A stretch of 64,000 nt of DNA from Mobula hypostoma (Eukaryota), in contig NC_086097.1 in NCBI RefSeq assembly GCF_963921235.1, forward strand, positions 10,974,001 to 11,038,000, given 5' to 3'. Shown piece after piece: positions 1-50,462 of the stretch. Position 1 is the stretch's first letter; each line of letters begins with the position of its first letter. The position numbers and the translations under genes are program-made. The notes under the pieces were generated by a model. That model did not search any database. It was not told where the DNA came from and worked only from the letters and a program-made list of their open reading frames with translations.

Positions 1-129
1 ATCCCATGACTTCATGTAACCCTGATCAGGGGCTAAGCAGGTGCTACACCTTGCCCGTGGGTGACCTGCAAGCTAGCAGATGAAAGGAGCACCTTACATC
101 TCCTTTGGTAGACTTATTTCCATCCTGCC
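1..129 (-). mobile_element. RTE-related non-autonomous element, 5' part (family A), cut by the window edge
   Basis: Aligns by eye with 33970-34105 and with the reverse complement of 3996-4130. Confidence 0.7.
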
Positions 130-4360: not shown

Positions 4361-4570
4361 GGACCGATGGCCAGTGAATCACTCAGGAAAATCTGAATGC
4401 TGGTCATGGATCAAACTGACTAGTCAGTCCAGAATAGGCTGGAAGAACGATCCTGGCACTTCTGAAAATTTTTGTAAATACAAAATAATCTGCAGATGCT
4501 GCGGTCAAAGCAACACTCACAACACGCTGGAGGAACTCAGCAGGTCGGGCAGCATCCGTGGAAAAGATCG

Positions 4571-4604
4571 GTCAACGTTTCAGGCCGGAACCCTTCGTCA
4601 GGAC
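4571..4604 (-). ncRNA. Minimal type I hammerhead ribozyme motif (core intact)
   Basis: Reverse complement reads GTC-CTGACGA-AGGGTTCCGGCCT-GAAA-CG-TT-GAC. Confidence 0.8.
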
Positions 4605-5159
4605 TGCAGAGGGAAGGGGCAGAGGCCCTATAAAGAAGGTGGGGGGAGGGTGGGAAGGAGAAGGCTGGTAGGTTCCAGGTGAAAAACCAGTAAGGGGAAA
4701 GATAAAGGGGTGGGGAAGGGGAAGCAGGGCAGTGATAGGCAGGAAAGGTGAAGAAAGAATAGGGGAAAACACAATGGGTAGTAGAAGGAGGCGGAACCAT
4801 GAGGGAGGAGATAGGCAGCTGGAGGAGGGGGCAGAGTGAAATAGGGATAGAGGAAGGGAGGGGGAGGGAATTACCGGAAGTTGGAGAATTCTATGTTCAT
4901 ACCAAGGGGCTGGAGACTACCTAGACAGTATATGAGGTGTTGCTCCAACCTGAGTTTAGCCTCTTCATGGCAGTAGAGGAGGCCATGTACGGACATATCC
5001 GAATGGGAAGCAGAGTTGTGTTTTCCCCTATTCCTCCTTCACCTTTCCTGCCTATCACCTCCCTGCCTCCCCCCCCCCACCCCTTTATCTTTCCCCTTAC
5101 TGGTTTTTTCCCACCCTCCCCCCACCTTCTTTATAGGGCCTCTGCCCCTTCCGTCTACA

Positions 5160-5193
5160 GTCCTGACGAAGGGTTCCGACCCGAAACGTTGAC
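5160..5193 (+). ncRNA. Minimal type I hammerhead ribozyme motif (core intact), sense to SEL1L pre-mRNA
   Basis: GTC-CTGACGA-A-GGGT(TCCG)ACCC-GAAA-CG-TT-GAC. Confidence 0.8.
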
Positions 5194-5961
5194 CGATCCT
5201 TTCCACAGATGCTGCCCGACCTGCTGAGTTCCTCCAGCGTGTTGTGAAAATTTTTGTGATGTTTCTAAATCAGTAGTTCTTAGACTCCTAATCTCAAATC
5301 ATTTTAAAAACAATTCTGCACATATAATTTCATAGAATTTAACTTTGGCTCCTAACAAAGCCTGTTGAGTGTTTTGGGATGAAACCTCAGCAGTATAACT
5401 AATTAGGCCTCACTGCACTTCCTGAATTCAGTGGGTGTAGTTAATTGGTCTTCAATCCAGCCAATGTAAGTGGCATTGGGCTGCATCTAGCACAGGTTGT
5501 CCTTTATTGCAGTTCAGTAGTTTTAGTCAGGTTTGGTCTCACTGGCATATGTCATCATGAAATATGTTGTTTTGCCATAGCAGTATATTGTAATGTATAA
5601 TATATAAAACTATAAATTGCAATCAGAAATGTATATGAAAATTAGTGCAAGAAGAGGAAAAAAGAAGGGGGCTGTGTACATGGGTTCGTTGTCATTCAGA
5701 AATCTGATGGTAGGGGAAAAAGATATTACTGAAATGTTGAGTGTGTTTTATGGGCCTCTACTTCAGTTGGTACAATATTTGCATTGTAAACATCCATTCT
5801 CTGCACAAGTGAAATCACGGTTCAGAAATGACTATTTTTAGATTGCAGTTTTTTTTTCTCTCTCCGTATTACAACTCTTTTGTCTGTGGGTTTTTACTCA
5901 TTTGAGTACTTGGGATAACAATCTACTTTATACTTTGTACTATGTACTTTGCATTTTCTGA

Positions 5962-6279
<318 letters not shown>

Positions 6280-7644
6280 TAAACAATTATTTGCTGTTAC
6301 ATCAATAGTCTAGTTTGTTAAGTTAGTGGTAAAGCATAGAAAGAGGCTCTTTAGCCTACTGCATCCATACTGACTGTCATGTCTTTATTGTCAGTTGGTT
6401 CTGAAGAAAGGTCTCGACCCAAACTATCTGTTCACTTCCATACATGCTGCCTGACCTGAGTTCCTTCAGCATTTTGTGTATTGCTTTGGATTTCTAGCAT
6501 CTGCAGACCCTCGTATTTGTGCCTTTACTGATCCTACTTGTCTGAATTAATTTCAAATGTCAATTTATCGATCACTCAAGACTGTGCTGAAATGGTTCTT
6601 AAATATTTCTCCTGCTTCAGTCTTTTAGGGATCATTCCACATGCTAACTAATCTGGAAAAATGTACTCCCAGAATCTCCTTTAACCTCCCCAATCCCTTT
6701 AAATCTTTGCTCTCTAATGTAGACACCTCTGCTATAGAACTAGGTGCTGGCTACTATCTTTACTTATCCATTTTGTTCACTGTTCCCTCTAAACTGCATG
6801 GCTGCACAGTAACTGAAATGGTCCTGCATAGCCACGCAGCTAGTAATGGACACAGCTAGAAAGTTAACGAAATGTGAAAGATTCTCATGTTCTGTATTGT
6901 GTTATACTATACCCTTCAATTAACAAAGTATGTGAATTTTCAATTTTCATTCTAAATATTTGCAAAAATAAAAAGCATTTAGTGCTATGCAGTTTTCAGG
7001 CTGTGTATATAATAATGAAAGAAGTCCTGCTTAGAGCAATGGTTGGCCCAGGCAGCTGTAAAAATAAATAAAAGGGATTGTTGATTTTATACCTCTACCA
7101 TGTCACCTCTTTGCTCCAAGATAAACAACCCTATCGCATCCGATTTCTCCTCTTAAAGACCTCCAGTACAGGCAACATCTTTTTCTGAATTCTTTTCCTT
7201 GATCACTGAAAACCATAGCAAATGAATGTAACTCATTTGTGCAACATTGTAAAATGTGATGGTTTCAGAGGATGCAGAAAAGGTTCATTGGAATATTGCC
7301 TGGATTCAAGTATTAACTATTGGAGAGGTTGGATAAATTTAGGATTGTGTTCTGTAGGTGTTGGAAGTTGAGGGATATCTTGAAGTAGATAAAATTGAGA
7401 GAGACTGAATTGATGGAAAGTCAGGGTGGAATTGTAAAATGATCGAAGGCATACCAGAAGACAAAGCAAGAGGGGTAAAGTTTTTAAAGGAGATTTGCAT
7501 GGCAATTTTTGGGGATAAAGGTATCTTAAATGTCAGAGGAAATGGTAGAAGTAGAAACATTTTAAAAGGTGTTTGAACAGATAAATGAACAGGCAGAGAA
7601 TGGAGAGATATAGACCACTTTCTATTAGATGTGCATTTTAATTT

Positions 7645-16924: not shown

Positions 16925-18600
16925 TGATGTGATGCAGCTATGTCTACAAGAGCCTCTGCAATTTCTTTCCTAGCCTCCCATAAGGTCTGGGGATGCACTT
17001 TATCAGGTCCTAGGGAATTGCCCACCGTAATTGAGCTCAGGGCCGCAAATACCTCCTGCTTCTTAATATGTATATGATCCAAGACCTCACTACTTAACAC
17101 CTCCATTCCTTTGTCATCCATAATATCCTTTGTAAACACAGTGGAAATAGGCATTAAAAATCATAACCATCCCCCGTAGCTCCACACACAAGCAGCCCTG
17201 ATAGTTTTTAAGAAGACCCAGTCTCCCTAGTCATTATTTTACTCGTAATGTAACTGAAAACCTCTTGGGATTATCGTTAACCATGCCTAACAAATTTGTC
17301 TTGTATTCCAACACTCACAACACACGGGAGGAACTCAGCAGGTCAGGCAGCATCCGTGGAAAAGACTGGTCGATGTTTCGGACCGGAACCCTTTGTCAGG
17401 AGGAAGGGTTCCGGCCTGAAACGTCGTCCGATCTTTTCCACAGATGCCTGACCTGCTGAGTTCCTCCAGCGTGTTGTGAGTGTTGCTTTGAACCCAGCAT
17501 CTGCAGTTTATTTTGTGTTTACTGTCTTGTATTCCCGTTTTGCCATTCTGGTTTCCAATTAAAGCCTCATCTTAAGGCTTTTTTTTAATATTTGTTGAGA
17601 ATTCATTCATACTCAGCTGCTTGAAAATGTACACCAGCTTCTTTTTACTTACCAGAGCGTCAGTGTCTCTCGGCAGCCAGGGTTCCCTGAACTCAGTATG
17701 TCCACCCTTCAACCTAACAGGAATATGTGGGCCTTTTGAAAGTTTTTACTTGCCTACTGTTCCTTTGCCTTTAAATAGAATCAGCCAGTCATCTCAGCTG
17801 GATTCTGCCTAATGCCCTGCACCAGTGGAGAACTTGAATCTGTAGACCAGTTCGACCTTATTCCATAACTATTCAAAAACTAAAATTCAGAGTACATATA
17901 TGTCACCATATGCACCCCTGAGATTTATTTTTGGGCAGGCAATCAGTAAATAGAAAGAAACACAATAGAATCAATGAAACACCACACATGACAAATGGGC
18001 AAACAACCAATGTGCAAAAGACAACAGATTGTGTAAATACAAATAAAAAATAAAAATAAATTAATCAGGAATGTGTATAAAGTACATAAGTTGATTAGAA
18101 TTGTGGTCACTGGACCCAGGGTTTTCCCAACGGCCACTTCAGTTCACCTCCTCTCTGAGAGGAGGTACAGTATTGCAGTTACTCTATATATTGCATGAGG
18201 AAGCTTCTTGGATACCATAAAAGCTCCAGCTTTCCAGACCCTTTGCAGTCAGTTGGTCCAGTCAATGCTGTGATCAGTGAAAATTCCCACTAACACTCCC
18301 TACTATTCTCATTATATTTTTACCTAAATGGCTTTGCTAGCTAATCCCTCGAGAATATCATCTCGAAGTACTGCTAGTATGTCGTCCCTAATAAAATAGT
18401 AGCTTTCAGTCCACTTTGTATGTTCCTTGGTCACACCTGAACCATTGGTATCCCAGGACATTGAGCTGCCAGTCTTGCCCTTCTCTCAGCCATGTTTCTC
18501 TTAGATTGGCCGCTACGTCCCAGTCCTAAGTGACAATCCACTCCTTCAGTTTATGCACCCTATGTTCGAAGATCTTTGTATATGTTGTCTTGAACTGTTC
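16925..18600 (-). mobile_element. Heavily decayed CR1 ORF2 (endonuclease/linker), interrupted by younger inserts
   Basis: ORF 16903..17154 reads STVFTKD...SLGPDKVHPQTLWEARKEIAEAL; GQDWQLNVLG-like remnant near 18450-18490. Confidence 0.6.
17310..17522. mobile_element. Penelope-derived fold-back mini-element (two head-to-head hammerhead-bearing arms)
   Basis: Arms ~17310-17395 and ~17403-17485 are inverted; 13 bp TSD TGTCTTGTATTCC at 17297-17309 and 17523-17535. Confidence 0.9.
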
Positions 18601-21096: not shown

Positions 21097-21495
21097 TCAA
21101 GCAACACACATCAAAGTTGCTGGTAAACGCAGCAGGCCGGGCAGCATCTCTAGGAAGAGGTACAGTTGACATTTCAGGCCGAGACCCTTCGTCAGGACTA
21201 ACTGAAAGAAGAGTAGTAACAGATTTGAAAGGGGGAGGGGGAGGGGGAGATCCAAAATGATAGGAGAAGACAGGAGGGGGAGGGATGGAGCCACGAGCTG
21301 GACAGGTGATTGGCAAAAGGGATACTAGAGGATCATAGGACAGGAGGCCCAGGGAGAAGGAAAAGGGGGAGGGGGGGAAACCCAGAGGATGGGCAAGGGG
21401 TATAGTCAGAGGGACAGAGGGAGAAAAAGGAGAGAGAGAGAAAGAATGTGTGTATATAAATAAATAGTGGATGGGGTACGAGGGGGAGGTGGGAG
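21097..21495 (-). mobile_element. Penelope-like 3' UTR/terminal repeat with hammerhead motif (21165-21198), inserted in a CR1 fragment
   Basis: Near-identical reverse complement of ~31258-31630; hammerhead reads GTC-CTGACGA...GAAATGTC. Confidence 0.85.
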
Positions 21496-30571: not shown

Positions 30572-31630
30572 TAAACGCATCTCCCCCATTTCACGTACAT
30601 CTGCTCTCACTCCATCCTCCCACCACCCCACTAGGAATAGGGTTCCCCTGGTCCTCACCTACCACCCTACCAGCCTCCGGGTCCAACATATTATTCTCCG
30701 TAACTTCCGCCACCTCCAACGGGATCCCACCACTAAGCACATCTTTCCCTCCCCCACTGTCTCTGCATTCCGCAGGGATCGCTCCCTACGCAACACCCTT
30801 GTCCATTCGTCCCCCTCATCCCTCCCCACTGATCTCCCTCCTGGCACTTATCCGTGTAAGCGGAACAAGTGCTACACATGACCTTACACTTCCTCCCTTA
30901 CCACCATTCAGGGCCCACAGTCCTTCCAGGTGAGGCATCACTTCACCTGTGAGTCGACTGGGGTGATATACTGCGTCCGGTGCTCCCGATGTGGCCTTTT
31001 ATATATTGGTGAGACCTGACGCAGACCGGGAGACCGCTTTGCTGAACATCTACGCTCTGTCCGCCAGAGAAAGCAGTATCTCCCAGTGGCCACGCATTTT
31101 AATTCCACATCCCATTCCCATTCTGACATGTCTATCCACGGCCTCCTCTACTGTAAAGATGAAGCCACACTCAGGTTGGAGGAACAACACCTTATATTCC
31201 GTCTGGGTAGCCTCCAAACTAATGGCATGAACATTGACTTCTCTAACTTCCGCTAAGGCCCCACCTCCCCCTCGTACCCCATCTGTTACTCATTTTTAAG
31301 CACACATTCTTTCTCTCACTCTCCTTTTTCTCCCTCTGTCCCTCTGAATATACCTCTTGCCCATCCTCTGGGTCACACCCCCCCCTTGTCTTTCTTCCCG
31401 GACCTCCTGTCCCATGATCCTCTCGTATCCCCTTTTGCCTATCACCTGTCCAGCTCTCGGCTCCATCCCTCCCCCTCCTGTCTTCTCCTATCATTTTGGA
31501 TCTCCTCCTCCCCCTCCAGCTTTCAAATCCCTTACTCACTCTTCCTTCAGTTAGTCCTGACAAAGGGTCTCGGCCTGAAACGTCGACTGCACCTCTTCCT
31601 ATGGATGCTGCTTGGCCTGCTGCGTTCACC
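30572..31630 (+). mobile_element. 5'-truncated Penelope-like element: Cys-rich linker, GIY-YIG endonuclease, pyrimidine-rich 3' UTR and hammerhead repeat
   Basis: Hand translation across stops and a frameshift: RVPLVLTYHPTSLRVQHIILRNF...AFRRDRSLRNTLV...PCKRNKCYT...FTCESTGVIYCVRCSRCGLLYIGET.RR..DRFAEH...LIFRLGSLQTNGMNIDFSNFR* (stop ~31256); hammerhead 31554-31587 with a CTGACAA core. Confidence 0.92.
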
Positions 31631-31818
31631 AGCAACTTTGATGTGTGTTCCTTTTTATTTAGAATCAGTGAGATTTATTAGAAAAACCTTTAGTACCCCA
31701 ATTTCTCTAACTAATTAGATCTAGTGTTATTACCTATTTAAATATTTACATACTAACATTTGTCTTTTTATTTATCACTAGTTACTTCGGAAACTTACTG
31801 AATTCCTACTTTCTTGTA

Positions 31819-46340: not shown

Positions 46341-46622
46341 GCAAAATGGCAATAAAAAAAGGAGTAACCAGAAACCAGAAACACATATTACATAGCCGTC
46401 TAAAAACGTGAAATAGATTATTCTGTAATTAATAAGACTTCACCATTCTCTCTCAGATGGTATCCTCCATTCTCTCCACTGTATTGCAGATTCCCCTTCT
46501 ATCCATTCTGCCCCTTCTCCACAAGTTAAAACATTCTTAATTTCTAAGTTTGTTGAAAAGTCATTACAATAAACACTTACTTTGTTTCTCCTCCAAACAA
46601 AACCTGACATGTTGAATATTTA

Positions 46623-46861
46623 AGCAACACACATCAAAGTTGCTGGTGAACGCAGCAGGCCAAGCAGCATCTGTAGGAAGAGGTGCAGTCGACGTTTCAG
46701 GCCGAGACCCTTCGTCAGGACTTCGTTATTCCTGACGAAGGGTTTCGGCCTAAAACGTCGACTGCATCTCTTCCTACAGATGCTGCCTGGCCTGCTGCGT
46801 TCACCAGCAACTTTGATGTGTGTTGCTTGAATTTCCAGCATCTGCAGAATTCCTGTTGTTT
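46623..46861. mobile_element. Penelope-derived fold-back mini-element (head-to-head hammerhead arms)
   Basis: ~98 bp near-perfect arms 46623-46720 and 46730-46827 with a 9 nt spacer; 14 bp TSD ATGTTGAATATTTA at 46609-46622 and 46862-46875. Confidence 0.93.
46688..46721 (-). ncRNA. Minimal type I hammerhead ribozyme motif (core intact, GUC triplet)
   Basis: Reverse complement GTC-CTGACGA-AGGGTCTCGGCCT-GAAA-CG-TC-GAC. Confidence 0.8.
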
Positions 46862-48242
46862 ATGTTGAATATTTATATCTTTCTCTGCTTGTATTCCCAA
46901 TTTCCAACAGTTTCAGTTTGATGTTAGGCATTGTTTATTTAAAAATAAAAGTTACTAAACCTTAAAGGCATAGGAACAGAATTAGTCCATTTGACCCATT
47001 GAGTCTGCTCCACCATTTCATCATGGCTGACTTATTACTCATCTCAACCCAATTTTCTTGCCTTCTCCCATAACCTTTGTTGTCCAGACTTTTCAAGAAC
47101 CAATCAACTTCTGCTTTAAATATACTCAATGACTTGCCCTCTGGGTTAAGTATCAACTATGCCACTCAGCTATGCGTTCCCACATGGGAGGAGTTCTCAT
47201 ACTGTACAAGCAAGGTCGTCAATAAAGCTCAGTTGAAAATCCTGCTTGTTATGTCCTGGCGTGTTCTGCACGATCCCTCAATAACTAATACCACACCCTC
47301 CACAGCCATCTGTGGCAAAAAATCCATTGATTCACCACTCCCTAGTTTAGGAAATTCCTCTGCACCACTGTTCTAAAAGGACATCCTTGTATTCTGAGTC
47401 TGTGCCGTCTAGTCCTTGACTCCCCCACTATAGGAAACATCTTTCTCACTTCCACTCTATTTCAGCCATTCAATACTCAATGGGTTTCAATGAGATCCCT
47501 CCCTCATTCTTCTAAACTCTAGTGAGTGCAGGCAAAACAAGAAGAGTGCAGCATAATTATAAAGAAAGATTGCATAGTGACGTAGCTAGTGGAGATGCTG
47601 CTTTACAGCTCCTGTGGTACCGGCTTGTTCGTGACCTCTAGTACTGTTCGTGTGATGTTTACACCTCCTCCCAGTAAGCATCTACTCCTCTAATGATGGT
47701 TGCATTTCCGCCCACGTCACAAAGACACGGAGTGTGTATTAGAATCTGAGGTTGGTGATGAGAATATAATGGGATTGGTATAGCACATTCAGCTTAGAAA
47801 CAGGCCACCTGGCCCACAATGTCTCAGCTGAACATGGTGCCGAATTAAATTCCATCTCTTCTGCATGTTCATGATCTATTTTTTCCCATTGCCTGCATAT
47901 TCATGTGTCTATCTAATAGCCTGCAGGAGCTACATTGGACATTGAGAAAAATATAACACATTGTACAAATAAAACATGGGTTTATTCTATGGCAAATATT
48001 CCCAAGAAGATCAAATGATCTTCTAAAGTCTGAAACAACACTTAGGGCTCAGGATCAGAATCAGAAACAGGTTTAATGTCATTGTCATATGTCGTGAAAT
48101 CTGTTGTCTGGCCGCAGCAATACATTGCAATGCATAATAAAGTAAACTATAAATTATAGTAAGAAATATATAGAACATTTAAATTAAAAATGTAATGCAA
48201 ATGAGAACAGAAAAGGAAAGAAAAATTTAGTGAAGTAATGTA

Positions 48243-48466
48243 AACACGAGGAATTCTGCAGATGCTGGAAATTCAAGCAACACACATCAAAGTTGCTGGT
48301 GAATGCAGCAGGCCAGGCAGCATCTCTAGGAAGAGGTACAGTCGACGTTTCAGGCCGAGACCCTTCGTCAGGATCTGACGAAGGGTCTCGGCCTCGGCCT
48401 GAAACGTCAACTGTACCTCTTCCTGGAGATGCTGCCTGGCCTGCTGCATTCACCAGCAACTTTGAT
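48243..48466. mobile_element. Penelope-derived fold-back mini-element (head-to-head hammerhead arms)
   Basis: Arms meet at CGTCAG-GAT-CTGACG (48366-48380); 13 bp TSD GTGAAGTAATGTA at 48230-48242 and 48467-48479. Confidence 0.93.
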
Positions 48467-50462
48467 GTGAAGTAATGTACTTTGGTTTATTGTCCATTCT
48501 ATGAACAATGAACCCATGTATACTACCACACTACTTTTATCATTAGAAATTTGACTGTGGAAGGGAAGAAGCTATTCCTGAGTTATAGTGTGTGCCTTTA
48601 GGATCTTGTACCTCCTCCACAATGGTAATAATGAAAAGAGTGCATGTTCTGTGTGATGGCGATCCTTAATGATGGATGCCCCCTTTTGCATTAGACAGTA
48701 AGGGAGAAAATTTTTCAAGCAAAGTGCACCTCAGATTATTTGGTTCACAGCAGAGCGTGAAGCCATGTTAGGCATCAGGGTCAGCTCTGTTATACAAAGG
48801 TGAATGTATAAAATATACAGCTTGAGATTTGTTTGCTTAACAGCAGTCGCAAAGCAAGGAACCTGAAAGAACCCAATTAGAAAAAAAGGATAAACCCTGA
48901 GTGCCCAGAGAGAAAGAGAAAAAAAACCAAAAGAAATTATGCAAACAATAGAAGCAAGCAAAAGCAACAGAAATCTGAACTAACATATGTCCTTAGATCC
49001 AAATCCTCAAAACCGGATCCCGGAGTAGGCCCAAAGCCTCGGTATTCAGTTCATCATATTAGTGGGGCAAATCGCTGCAAAGTTCGCAGATACGAAGCAC
49101 AGCAGCCAGGGGCAGTCTCACCATCTTAGCGTCACGGAAGGAGGAGCTCCCAGACTATCTGGGCCAGTGTTTAAATTGTCTGAACCTTGCGCTAGGAACT
49201 GGATTCAGTCGTACAGAATCACTCTGGGACTAGATTTCACTGCTGGAGAGTCAGGTCGGATCAGTACTTAGAGCGATCCAACTTCGCCCGACTCTTGACA
49301 TGTAACATGTTAGCATGGTAAATGAAAACAGATTTATGTATTCAGGCCTGTCTCAGTGTGTATAATGATGCTTTGATTTAGTAAATCAACATGTAGTACT
49401 GTGCAAAAGTCCAAGACACATATACATAACTAGGGTACCTAAGACTTAAGGTAGTCTTACAGTATTTAGTCATTTTATGTATTGCACTGTACTGCTGCCA
49501 CAAAAAAAAAACAAATTTCATGACATATGTGAGTGACAATAAACCTGATTTTGATATGAGTCTCTATTATGGACTGAGAGTGGGAAGGGGGCAGGGAGAG
49601 GGAGTCATGGTTAGGAAAAGGAAAAAGGACAGGGGAGGGAGTGTGAAGCATCAGAGGGACATTCTGTAATGATCAATAAACCAAGTGTTTGGAAACAAAC
49701 GACCTTGCCTGCTGTCTCAGAGCTGGGTGTGTCTGCACCCAAGCAACCTCCTGCCCAGGGCACTCCACTCCTGTCCCACACTCCTCCCATAATGCTCCAT
49801 CCTCTAAAGACCCAACATCCTTTACTCCTACCAGATTTACAAACTCGCTCTTCATTCTCTGTTGACAAATACAATACTCTGCAAATGCTTTAGGAACCCT
49901 AGCTATATACTGGCTTAAGATTTTTAACAGTACTGTAGAATATTGGAGAGTCTGCTTCAACACATAAAACACCGGAGGAGGTCACTGGGGTTTCAGATGA
50001 AGCATCTCAGCTTCAAATGTTGACTGCCCATTTCCCTCGGCAGATACTGCCTGTTACACTAAGTTCTTCCAACATTTTCTGTGTTGTTTCACACCGAACA
50101 TTATTGAATGACTGGAAGGTAACAGAATATATCACATTGTAAGAAAGAAAGTTGATTAGATTTTATACACTATAGGCATGCAAAGAATAGCTTCCATTTC
50201 TGGCAGTATATCCTATTACACAACATATTGTATAGGATTATTGATATCGTAAATAATAATATATACTATTAGACCTATGATCCATAGCTGATTATCTAAT
50301 AATAATCTAATCAGGAGTAATATCGCCAGCACTTTGTTGTTTTGTGGCAGCAGTCCCATTCAATACAGGAGAATAATAAAATAAAAATTACAATTCGAAT
50401 ATATAATAGATTCTACTGTGTTTCTTTGTTTTGTGGCTGCCTGTAAGCAGACAAATCTCAAG

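Follow-up and report, generated by a model that had tools for sequence, protein, structure and literature searches.

The 64,000-nt stretch of Mobula hypostoma DNA analysed here (contig NC_086097.1, positions 10,974,001 to 11,038,000; hereafter the window) contains three short, hairpin-forming insertions that lack an open reading frame (ORF). These palindromes stem from a canonical, putatively endonuclease-bearing Penelope-like element (PLE), the unit of which measures 3.5 kb, and are 5′-truncated insertions in a head-to-head arrangement. In each of them, two inverted copies of the 3′ end of the element meet inside a single target-site duplication (TSD), and in a genomic sample the point at which the copies meet falls preferentially at stem I of a hammerhead ribozyme motif. 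This hot spot is real, takes the form of a peak rather than of a fixed point, and is common to non-palindromic copies. The element and its insertion architecture are both of a known kind; what we infer is the cause of the hot spot.

The sole biochemical study of PLE integration ends at the extension of both target strands. Thousands of natural products in one genome provide a readout of the start site used on each strand and of the cDNA that finishes first, and the same products also record where the joint lies, what microhomology it contains, and whether one or two RNA molecules were copied. The subject bears, moreover, on the long-standing question of the purpose of the hammerhead in PLEs. 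For annotation, the units should be treated as fragments of a PLE rather than as a new family resembling miniature inverted-repeat transposable elements (MITEs). A preliminary description of the window knew of no account of such palindromes as a distinct system and inferred an inversion point fixed at the ribozyme; its overall interpretation is partly supported.

Anatomy of the palindromes in the window

Window coordinates refer to the whole stretch, and element positions (pos) are counted from the T of TCCTGACGA as pos 1; that pos 3-9 coincide with the hammerhead core numbering C3-A9 is due to chance. The three palindromes (units A, B, and C) lie where the preliminary description had placed them, and their arms, spacers, and flanking repeats could all be located (Table 1). 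Each has a TSD of its own, 14 nt long in unit A and 13 nt in units B and C, and a different centre, namely CTTCGTTAT, GG, and T, respectively. One arm reaches the complete 3′ end of the element (...CAGCATCTGCAGAATTCCTGTTGTTT) and its partner stops 30-45 nt short, an inequality that the preliminary description does not mention. With a separate TSD around a PLE 3′ end in every case, the units are, as had been proposed, hairpins made by a retroelement in independent insertion events.

In unit A, inverted arms at 46609-46720 and 46730-46841 are 93% complementary across the 9-nt spacer CTTCGTTAT, and the flanking direct repeat ATGTTGAATATTTA is identical over its 14 nt (46609-46622 and 46862-46875, 100% identity). 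The right arm is 34 nt longer, the terminal 'tail' being present there and missing from the left arm. As a single strand, the unit folds into a 98-bp hairpin of -200.6 kcal/mol (z = -30.7, equalled by 0 of 200 shuffles). Its spacer can be read as re-copied CTTCG (the reverse of pos 7-11) followed by TTAT (pos -3..0 with one change), and its exact junction occurs at 1 locus genome-wide. The tailed arm has AAAA for the GAAA box, i.e. a mutated core position, and its predicted cleavage site lies between 46759 and 46760. In unit C, the tail-less arm contains a 6-nt duplication of CGGCCT, and the 25-nt junction around the one-base joint is found at one further locus, which makes two genome-wide. 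A BLAST comparison of the long arm of unit A with the window returned 17 matches. The majority run on into CT-rich sequence upstream, so that the arms represent the 3′ end of a longer element.

The parent element

That longer element was traced in the window's own assembly (3.48 Gb, 200 contigs). It has a pseudo-long terminal repeat (pLTR) organisation, in which a CT-rich 3′ untranslated region (3′UTR) of ~300 nt is followed by a minimal hammerhead motif and then by ~100 nt ending in the tail. A terminal 27-mer of the tail has 27,586 exact matches in the genome (13,901 + 13,685), and the reversed control has 0. Two PLE copies lie in tandem on one strand, 3,497 nt apart. In the copy L132, the tail passes directly into the leader of the next unit (GCGTTTAAATTCAC...), with the ATG 38 nt later, and a 34-mer spanning the tail-to-leader joint has 394 exact genome matches; spacing, joint, and matches together display the partial tandem organisation of a pLTR element.

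The long copy L131 is broken into three reading frames. In its translation, IIKPADKGG, which includes the DKG motif, occurs along with RYIDD, and a Cys/His cluster is present at the C-terminal end. A DKG motif upstream of the core of the reverse transcriptase and an xIDD catalytic box, represented by these strings, are reportedly given by Arkhipova 2006 as hallmarks of PLE-type reverse transcriptases. A putative GIY-YIG endonuclease domain (PF01541, E = 9.4e-4) scores 19.9 bits, under the Pfam curated cut-off of 22.6, with the motif GVIYCVRC...LLYIGET visible and a Cys/His cluster before it. Pfam RVT_1 gave no score on the PLE frames of this copy at E <= 0.01. Their nearest protein-atlas clusters combine PF26215 with RVT_1 and come from animals (score 0.97), which serves as a lead only.

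An inverted truncated partner and a one-sided tail occur together at 34 of the 100 tails sampled, 32 of these 34 having a single variable TSD. If the same share applies to all 27,586 tails, there are several thousand solo units. Elsewhere, at C2:157816733-157817696, four tail-to-leader junctions follow one another on one strand at a spacing of 310 nt, and a contig joint of L132 (959->841) steps back by 119, so that pos 0 is followed by pos 118. These two observations suggest short head-to-tail, retrozyme-like arrays of the hammerhead-tail module.

The ribozyme is called at motif level only, because Rfam finds no hammerhead: the whole window at gathering score yielded neither a hammerhead nor any other family, and the full copy L132 at E <= 10 yielded no hammerhead and three chance-level matches, none of them in the module. 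The boxes of the motif are stem I at -1..2 (AGUC) and 31-34 (GACU), CUGACGA at pos 3-9, and GAAA at pos 23-26, with a predicted cut after C30. Stem I has 4 bp and the short stem II 3 bp, and a palindromic ACGU replaces stem III. Minimal hammerheads published for PLEs have no stem III and need a special descriptor (PMC4209133; this paper, PMC3846280, PMC8557442, PMC2377424, PMC6765202, and the preprint by Li et al. are cited from excerpts).

Junctions concentrate at stem I

For an unbiased view of where copies end, the first 100 matches of the tail 27-mer along contig C1 were chosen blind to their 5′ structure, each locus was compared by BLAST with one real long copy, and the junctions were refined by eye. 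The tailed arm extends at least ~590 nt upstream, to the edge of the 700-nt stretch examined, in 24 cases, ends between -588 and -61 in 15, and ends between -60 and +104 in 61. Of these 61 short ends, 34 belong to head-to-head duplications of the terminal module and 24 to simple truncations; in two more (L070, L072) sequence from far upstream is inverted, and one (L095) is doubtful. Many longer copies have inverted partners too, for example L049, in which both arms end at -501.

Enrichment was calculated for the interval -10..+6 (17 nt), with binomial P values that use 17 of 193 positions. It holds 22/61 of all the tailed arms (P = 4e-9) and 26/34 of the leading, i.e. furthest-reaching, arms of the palindromes (P = 3e-21). 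The preliminary description had put the inversion point ~30 nt upstream of the predicted cut, where the hammerhead core has its 5′ edge, and a strongly non-random position there is indeed what the leading arms show. It had also called the junction fixed, which is contradicted by the 8/34 leading arms outside the interval, by longer palindromes with junctions hundreds of nucleotides upstream, and by a fourth head-to-head insertion in the window, not listed in that description (insert ~4476-5241), the junction of which lies roughly 170-290 nt upstream of the ribozyme, so that junctions in the window are not always at the ribozyme. Nor is the hot spot specific to palindromes, for simple truncations peak at the same place (7/24, P = 0.004). 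Secondary clusters of 5′ ends are found at -16..-12 (6/24 simple copies) and at -29..-22.

A genome-wide pattern, consisting of the reverse complement of an 11-mer, 0-12 nt, and then the 11-mer, has 742 loci when anchored at pos 1, 406 loci at pos 14 (many of these with one arm extending to pos 3-5), and 168 loci at pos -13. Contigs built from the independent public short-read runs X1, X2, X3, and X5 have loose ends at pos 128-137, 96-97, and 0..-3, and their summed word depth, a poor measure that serves as a consistency check only, drops ~8-fold across pos 1. In run X5, which comes from another organism, a contig joint (960->1262) represents a variant without the 301-nt CT-rich 3′UTR, the end of the ORF region being joined to pos -1; the same boundary therefore separates modules between families. 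A first genome sample, in which the query ran from pos 1 and scoring was confined to the best 40 of 1,445 candidates, was biased and has been replaced. The consistent T/C difference between arms at pos 38 in that first sample was unseen in the unbiased one and is attributed to the query carrying T.

Each unit is a separate insertion

A shared word of at least 8 nt encloses 32/34 palindromes versus 11/1122 cross-locus pairs of flanks, and each unit is therefore one insertion. The word has a median length of 13 nt and is 71% A+T. Palindromes are known to be troublesome for short-read assembly (PMC8557442, excerpt), and the units might in principle be assembly artefacts, or pairs of unrelated insertions that abut by chance. 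With one TSD around 32/34 units, however, with units in a 256-Mb contig at about one-third of all tails, and with opposite-strand joints inside the module also in contigs of the independent runs, we find this explanation scarcely credible.

Among 50 hot-spot loci listed on C1, the junction strings fall into 34 types, 26 of them singletons, and the repeated ones are mostly 1-3 nt long. Because the junction sequences differ among loci, the units are made during insertion. Recurrence of identical junctions had been suggested as a check in the preliminary description: junctions mostly differ, that of unit A being unique, and one pair of loci, L081 and L106, shares a whole unit. These two are 198/200 identical over the whole unit and have in common an asymmetric junction (pos 1/G/pos 22), found at only those 2 loci in 3.48 Gb, as well as an arm-specific difference; their TSDs differ, and their outer ends are at pos 88 and pos 101. 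To judge from these sequences, the pair looks like a re-copied unit, and whole-unit re-copying would take place only rarely.

The pair is also what one would expect if the palindrome were a non-autonomous mobile unit, spreading from master copies in the manner of a MITE or a short interspersed nuclear element, given its 198/200 identity, common asymmetric junction, and different TSDs; a complex junction, CTAACGAAGGG or its complement, that occurs in 4/50 of the listed hot-spot loci is favourable to the same idea. Against it stand the restriction of the L081/L106 junction to two loci, the genome-wide uniqueness of that of unit A, the 34 strings (26 singletons) in 50 loci, and the fact that the 34 sampled palindromes cover several subfamily haplotypes matching long ORF-bearing copies. 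Spread as a mobile unit is accordingly very improbable in our view.

A further peculiarity of L081 and L106, found also in L107, is a G at pos 51 in the tail-less arm opposite an A in the tailed arm. L081 and L106 share ancestry, whereas L107 arose independently. Base pairing is possible between pos 49-56 and pos 108-115, the latter in the tail.

The outer ends of the arms fall at two sites, and the joints vary

In 30/34 palindromes, the tail-less arm has its outer end at pos 84-103, leaving 29-48 nt to the end of the tail, and just 3′ of a 6-bp stem-loop (pos 77-98) present in the single-arm fold. The tailed arm ends at pos 132-140, its tail amounting to 35 nt. Two longer, non-palindromic copies in the window stop at pos 101 and 99 (Table 1), and the tail-less start site thus also serves ordinary insertions. 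In the 26 hot-spot palindromes, with junctions read by eye, the end of the lagging arm varies from pos 4 to pos 72; 14 have a tail-less leader, 7 have a tailed one, and in 5 the arms are symmetric. That the tail-less arm should lead is expected from a race of two cDNAs, because the tail-less start is 35 nt nearer the 5′ end.

The arms of a unit are related to each other. Over 46 positions they differ by 0.83 within a unit versus 1.91 between loci, with 0/10,000 random matchings as low, and L097 has an identical private deletion in both arms. In L080 and L129, the arms differ at two family-polymorphic, subfamily-diagnostic sites. This pattern of kinship is consistent with the copying of two RNA molecules that usually derive from a single source locus.

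At the joints there is microhomology of 0-5 nt, such as CTTC in L071, TTCAG in L090, CTG in L044, and GTC in L016 and L097, the last two loci having the recurrent joint CTTCG/TCCTGACG (the slash marks the point of joining). Another recurrent joint, GAGAC/GAAGGG, is seen in 8/50 loci of another listed set. Stuttered re-copying of ACGAAG or CAGTTAG is found in L026, L046, L077, L099, and unit A. Microhomology and stutter are what template switching looks like.

Self-priming from junction palindromes was proposed for rotifer Penelope elements by Arkhipova et al. 2013 (PMC3846280, excerpt). Applied to the present units, a single cDNA would fold back at the end of its template, and the second arm would be copied from the first. 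Some features speak for such a snap-back: small palindromes or near-zero spacers are frequent at the joints (GGAC/GTCC, GGACT/AGTCC, GGGAT/CCC), private variants are usually common to both arms, and the recurrent joint CCTTCGTCAGG/GTCTC, found in L035 and in 6/50 loci of the set in which GAGAC/GAAGGG was counted, fits a CCT/AGG fold-back. We nonetheless consider it improbable. The leader is tail-less and the lagger tailed in 14/21 asymmetric hot-spot palindromes, and such a tailed arm is not a snap-back of the tail-less one, because a copy cannot hold 35 nt that are missing from its template. Moreover, the tail-less arm ends at the discrete site in 30/34 cases, instead of being co-extensive with its partner, the arms of L080 and L129 belong to different subfamily haplotypes, and spacers of 0-1 nt are too short for a hairpin loop.

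A second kind of product was noticed in L048, L070, and L072, in which the inverted segment comes from just upstream of the truncation point and nothing is duplicated, as in the twin priming of L1. Both product kinds therefore occur in one PLE family.

A model for palindrome formation

We think it likely that the palindromes are normal integration products of an autonomous endonuclease-bearing PLE, resulting from priming by both nicked strands and a switch between cDNAs. The PLE protein would nick the two strands of an AT-rich target at sites 13-14 bp from each other, and each 3′-OH would prime reverse transcription of PLE RNA from a separate internal start site. A start at ~pos 132-140 would produce the arm with the 35-nt tail, and one at ~pos 85-103, just 3′ of the small stem-loop, the tail-less arm. 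Whichever cDNA is first to run to the end of a short template may then switch to the 3′ end of its nascent partner, copying the latter back to the target. The switch would proceed via 0-5 nt of microhomology, sometimes with stuttering, and would leave two copies welded head to head in one TSD. Priming of both strands in vivo and the template switch, together with the origin of the template's 5′ terminus, are what we infer from the genomic copies; that both target strands are primed had already been suggested in the preliminary description, is the best reading of the units, and agrees with published work in vitro (PMC11167929).

What sets the hot spot

The simplest reading of the hot spot is that -10..+6 marks the commonest template ends. 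Of the causes considered, short RNAs that start at stem I seem to us the likeliest, though only tentatively so; the main alternative, that the boundary of a protein footprint lies there, strikes us as rather unlikely. A TATA-like TTTCAAAT is located at -36..-29 and an initiator-like TCAGTT at -7..-2, an arrangement with suitable geometry, and promoters and transcription start sites of PLEs have been located in pLTRs (PMC2377424, PMC6765202; excerpts). Since reverse transcription starts internally, any copy with at least ~40 nt of upstream sequence could supply the short template. In palindromes, the peak is probably sharpened by the near-palindrome GTCCTGAC (pos 0-7), which provides GTC/GAC microhomology between antisense cDNAs.

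A more specific possibility, which we regard as doubtful enough to be offered with reserve, is that the stretch from stem I to the tail (~100-140 nt) constitutes a discrete, self-contained short RNA template, and that a promoter within the CT-rich sequence upstream fixes the 5′ end of this RNA at stem I. Two such RNAs, as a rule of the same locus, would be taken up by a dimeric PLE particle and copied from both nicked strands at the two internal starts, with a cDNA-to-cDNA switch joining the run-offs. If true, the solo hairpins would be 'full-length' copies of a sub-genomic template, not truncation debris. They would then parallel MITEs while being products of a retrotransposon, would number in the thousands, and could give rise to hairpin RNA directed against the parent.

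Several points weigh against the reading developed here. The clusters at -16..-12 and -29..-22 do not fit a single start 25-30 nt below the TATA-like box. Pos 2-13 occurs at the right distance from the tail-to-ORF junction at 323 loci, 280 of which also have pos -11..0, and on C1 at most 8/32 of the pLTRs that precede an ORF could be cut near pos 0, about the share seen for solo tails (16/71). In the Anolis element, the boundary of the minimal template lies within stem II, not stem I. A single arm, compared with shuffles, showed no unusual folding stability (z = 0.37). Finally, junction calls are ambiguous by 1-5 nt where there is microhomology, and the 100-locus sample represents the first 9 Mb of one contig and the tail of one subfamily.

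We also considered whether the hot spot is the start of the full-length mRNA in the upstream pLTR. This candidate was rejected, there being no special support for it: most ORF-preceding pLTRs run past the hot spot (323 vs 280), as far as can be told from the 5′-end distribution of pLTRs before ORFs, which is based on pattern counts only. One match to a junction word, that of L082, is a chance product of the target sequence.

The preliminary description suggested, for the inversion point, either a short RNA template defined by the ribozyme, which we take in the sense of self-cleavage, or arrest of reverse transcription at the folded ribozyme. The hot spot does adjoin the ribozyme, the tail-less arm of L057 ends exactly at pos 31, the first base past the predicted cut, and a few other ends lie at pos 29-38. 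Yet ends at the predicted cleavage site are few, and arm ends called by BLAST show no peak at the cut, with 9 in the 13 nt of pos 26-38 against 10 in the 18 nt of pos 8-25. An enzyme travelling 3′ to 5′ would be expected to stall on the 3′ side, near pos 31-40, whereas the peak at -10..+6 lies on the 5′ side, past the whole motif. Mutants with an inactive ribozyme show normal insertion in vitro, and none of the RNA-seq reads start at the cut (PMC11167929). The motif, furthermore, receives no score from Rfam, and the long arm of unit A has AAAA for GAAA. A template defined or arrested by the ribozyme is for these reasons decidedly improbable, and self-cleaved RNA is evidently not the usual template here.

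Splicing was weighed as well: stem I could coincide with an intron acceptor, and the 5′ ends could stem from splicing intermediates, including stops at a lariat branch. Just upstream of pos 1, CCCTTACTCACTCTTCCTTCAG TTAG/ has the look of a branch point followed by a polypyrimidine tract and an AG acceptor, and the cluster at -16..-12 would fit a stop of reverse transcription at a branch A at -16. The intron of Drosophila virilis Penelope ends at the 5′ end of helix I (PMC4209133, excerpt) and lies 46 nt downstream of the start site (PMC2377424, excerpt). On the other hand, reading of the 300-nt 3′UTR revealed no convincing donor site. L066, L086, and L109 start at -1..0 and abut their TSDs directly, and are not exon-exon joins, cis-splicing yields no free 3′ exon, and the only contig deletion joint that ends at pos -1 (301 nt skipped, run X5) is without GT..AG ends. 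We judge splicing to be a very unlikely cause, and the resemblance to an acceptor is a lead, not a finding. In L132, on the reverse strand and ~30 nt upstream of TCCTGACGA, the acceptor-like stretch reads CCCTTACTCACTCTTCCTTCAGTTAG/, and the same sequence is seen in L002-L027.

Relation to known systems

Endonuclease-positive PLEs have been described with an inverted 5′-truncated copy, a one-sided tail, a variable TSD, AT-rich targets, and a palindromic junction (PMC3846280, PMC8557442; excerpts). The insertions studied here share with them the adjacent inverted truncated copy, the tail of 30-40 bp at one end, the AT-rich, variable TSD, the hammerhead motif in the repeated part, and, in long copies, the reverse transcriptase ORF with a putative GIY-YIG domain. 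They differ in that most are ORF-less solo units of 200-270 bp, and in that a junction hot spot at hammerhead stem I has been measured. The architecture of inverted pLTRs and tail reportedly appears also in the work of Evgen'ev and Arkhipova from 2005 and of Arkhipova from 2006. As inverted pLTRs, one-sided tails, palindromic junctions, and TSDs are the published signature of PLEs (PMC3846280, PMC8557442, PMC4209133), the claim of an undescribed, distinct system does not hold. Full-text literature searches, within papers that do not require a subscription, found no report of the stem I hot spot, of the head start of the tail-less arm, or of evidence for two templates.

The closest biochemical information comes from the purified Anolis PLE protein PAc, which was found in vitro to cut both target strands and to extend each of them (Frangieh et al. 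2024, PMC11167929). It reverse transcribes from two adjacent internal sites, the spacing of which equals the tail, and ribozyme cleavage is dispensable (PMC11167929). The likeness to the present units, as interpreted here, extends to both strands being extended, two start sites at tail spacing, a start next to a small stem-loop, AT-rich targets, and the dispensability of ribozyme cleavage. The in vitro study, in contrast, did not follow the resolution of the two cDNAs, and it reports no strand difference in start sites, whereas the genomic units almost always pair a tailed with a tail-less arm. The two elements also differ in that the PAc ORF starts inside the ribozyme and the ATG here lies 38 nt past the tail. 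In the twin priming of L1, reportedly described by Ostertag and Kazazian in 2001, the second target strand primes on the RNA, so that an inverted 5′ part comes to lie within one TSD. The non-duplicating inversions of L070, L072, and L048 are similar. Twin priming inverts a different upstream part without duplication, however, whereas both arms of the palindromes copy the same 90-130 nt.

In Schistosoma, dual minimal hammerheads that lie on opposite strands at a distance of 100-700 bp were reported in 2014 (Cervera & de la Pena, PMC4209133, excerpt). Non-LTR retrozymes are tandem head-to-tail units thought to cycle via circular RNA (PMC4209133; Li et al. 2026, bioRxiv 10.64898/2026.07.22.740005; excerpts). 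Like them, the units are ORF-less modules derived from a PLE, with a motif of the type-I minimal hammerhead and a palindromic stem III; unlike them, they are arranged head to head, dispersed, solitary, and flanked by TSDs, and are not tandemly repeated. MITEs, in turn, depend on a DNA transposase that acts on terminal inverted repeats, spread as units, and have TSDs of fixed length. The palindromes are equally small, ORF-less, hairpin-forming, dispersed, and flanked by TSDs, but they consist of retroelement 3′ ends, are unequal at their two ends, have junctions that vary by locus, and are made anew by reverse transcription, which sets them apart from MITEs.

Further features of the window

The coordinates of the insertions are collected in Table 1. 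The fourth head-to-head insertion has a 16-nt TSD, TT(C/G)TGAAAATTTTTGT.

Table 1 PLE insertions in the window and their parts
Feature	Position	Strand	Remarks
Unit A, left TSD	46609..46622		ATGTTGAATATTTA, direct repeat
Unit A, tail-less arm	46623..46720	-	PLE pos 98 to 1 reversed; hammerhead core with GAAA intact
Unit A, junction filler	46721..46729		CTTCGTTAT
Unit A, tailed arm	46730..46861	+	PLE pos 1-132; CUGACGA at 46732-46738; 'tail' ~46827-46861
Unit A, right TSD	46862..46875		Direct repeat
Unit B	17297..17535		Another subfamily; TSD TGTCTTGTATTCC at 17297-17309 and 17523-17535
Unit B, tail-less arm	17310..17401	-	To pos 1; followed by GG
Unit B, tailed arm	17404..17522		From pos 9
Unit C	48230..48479		TSD GTGAAGTAATGTA at 48230-48242 and 48467-48479
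Unit C, tailed arm	48243..48373	-	To pos 1; followed by T
Unit C, tail-less arm	48375..48466		From pos 3
Fourth head-to-head PLE insertion	4460..5257		Another subfamily; insert ~4476-5241; arms 4517-4774 and 5016-5247, ~250 nt
Longer PLE copy, 3′ end	21097..21197	-	Tail-less end at pos 101, non-palindromic
Similar long copy	31555..31653	+	Stops at pos 99, non-palindromic

Outside the window, the PLE copy L131 is adjoined on the reverse strand (4390-7040 of that locus) by an element of the long interspersed nuclear element type, with matches to Exo_endo_phos (E = 1.9e-11) and RVT_1 (E = 1.1e-44).

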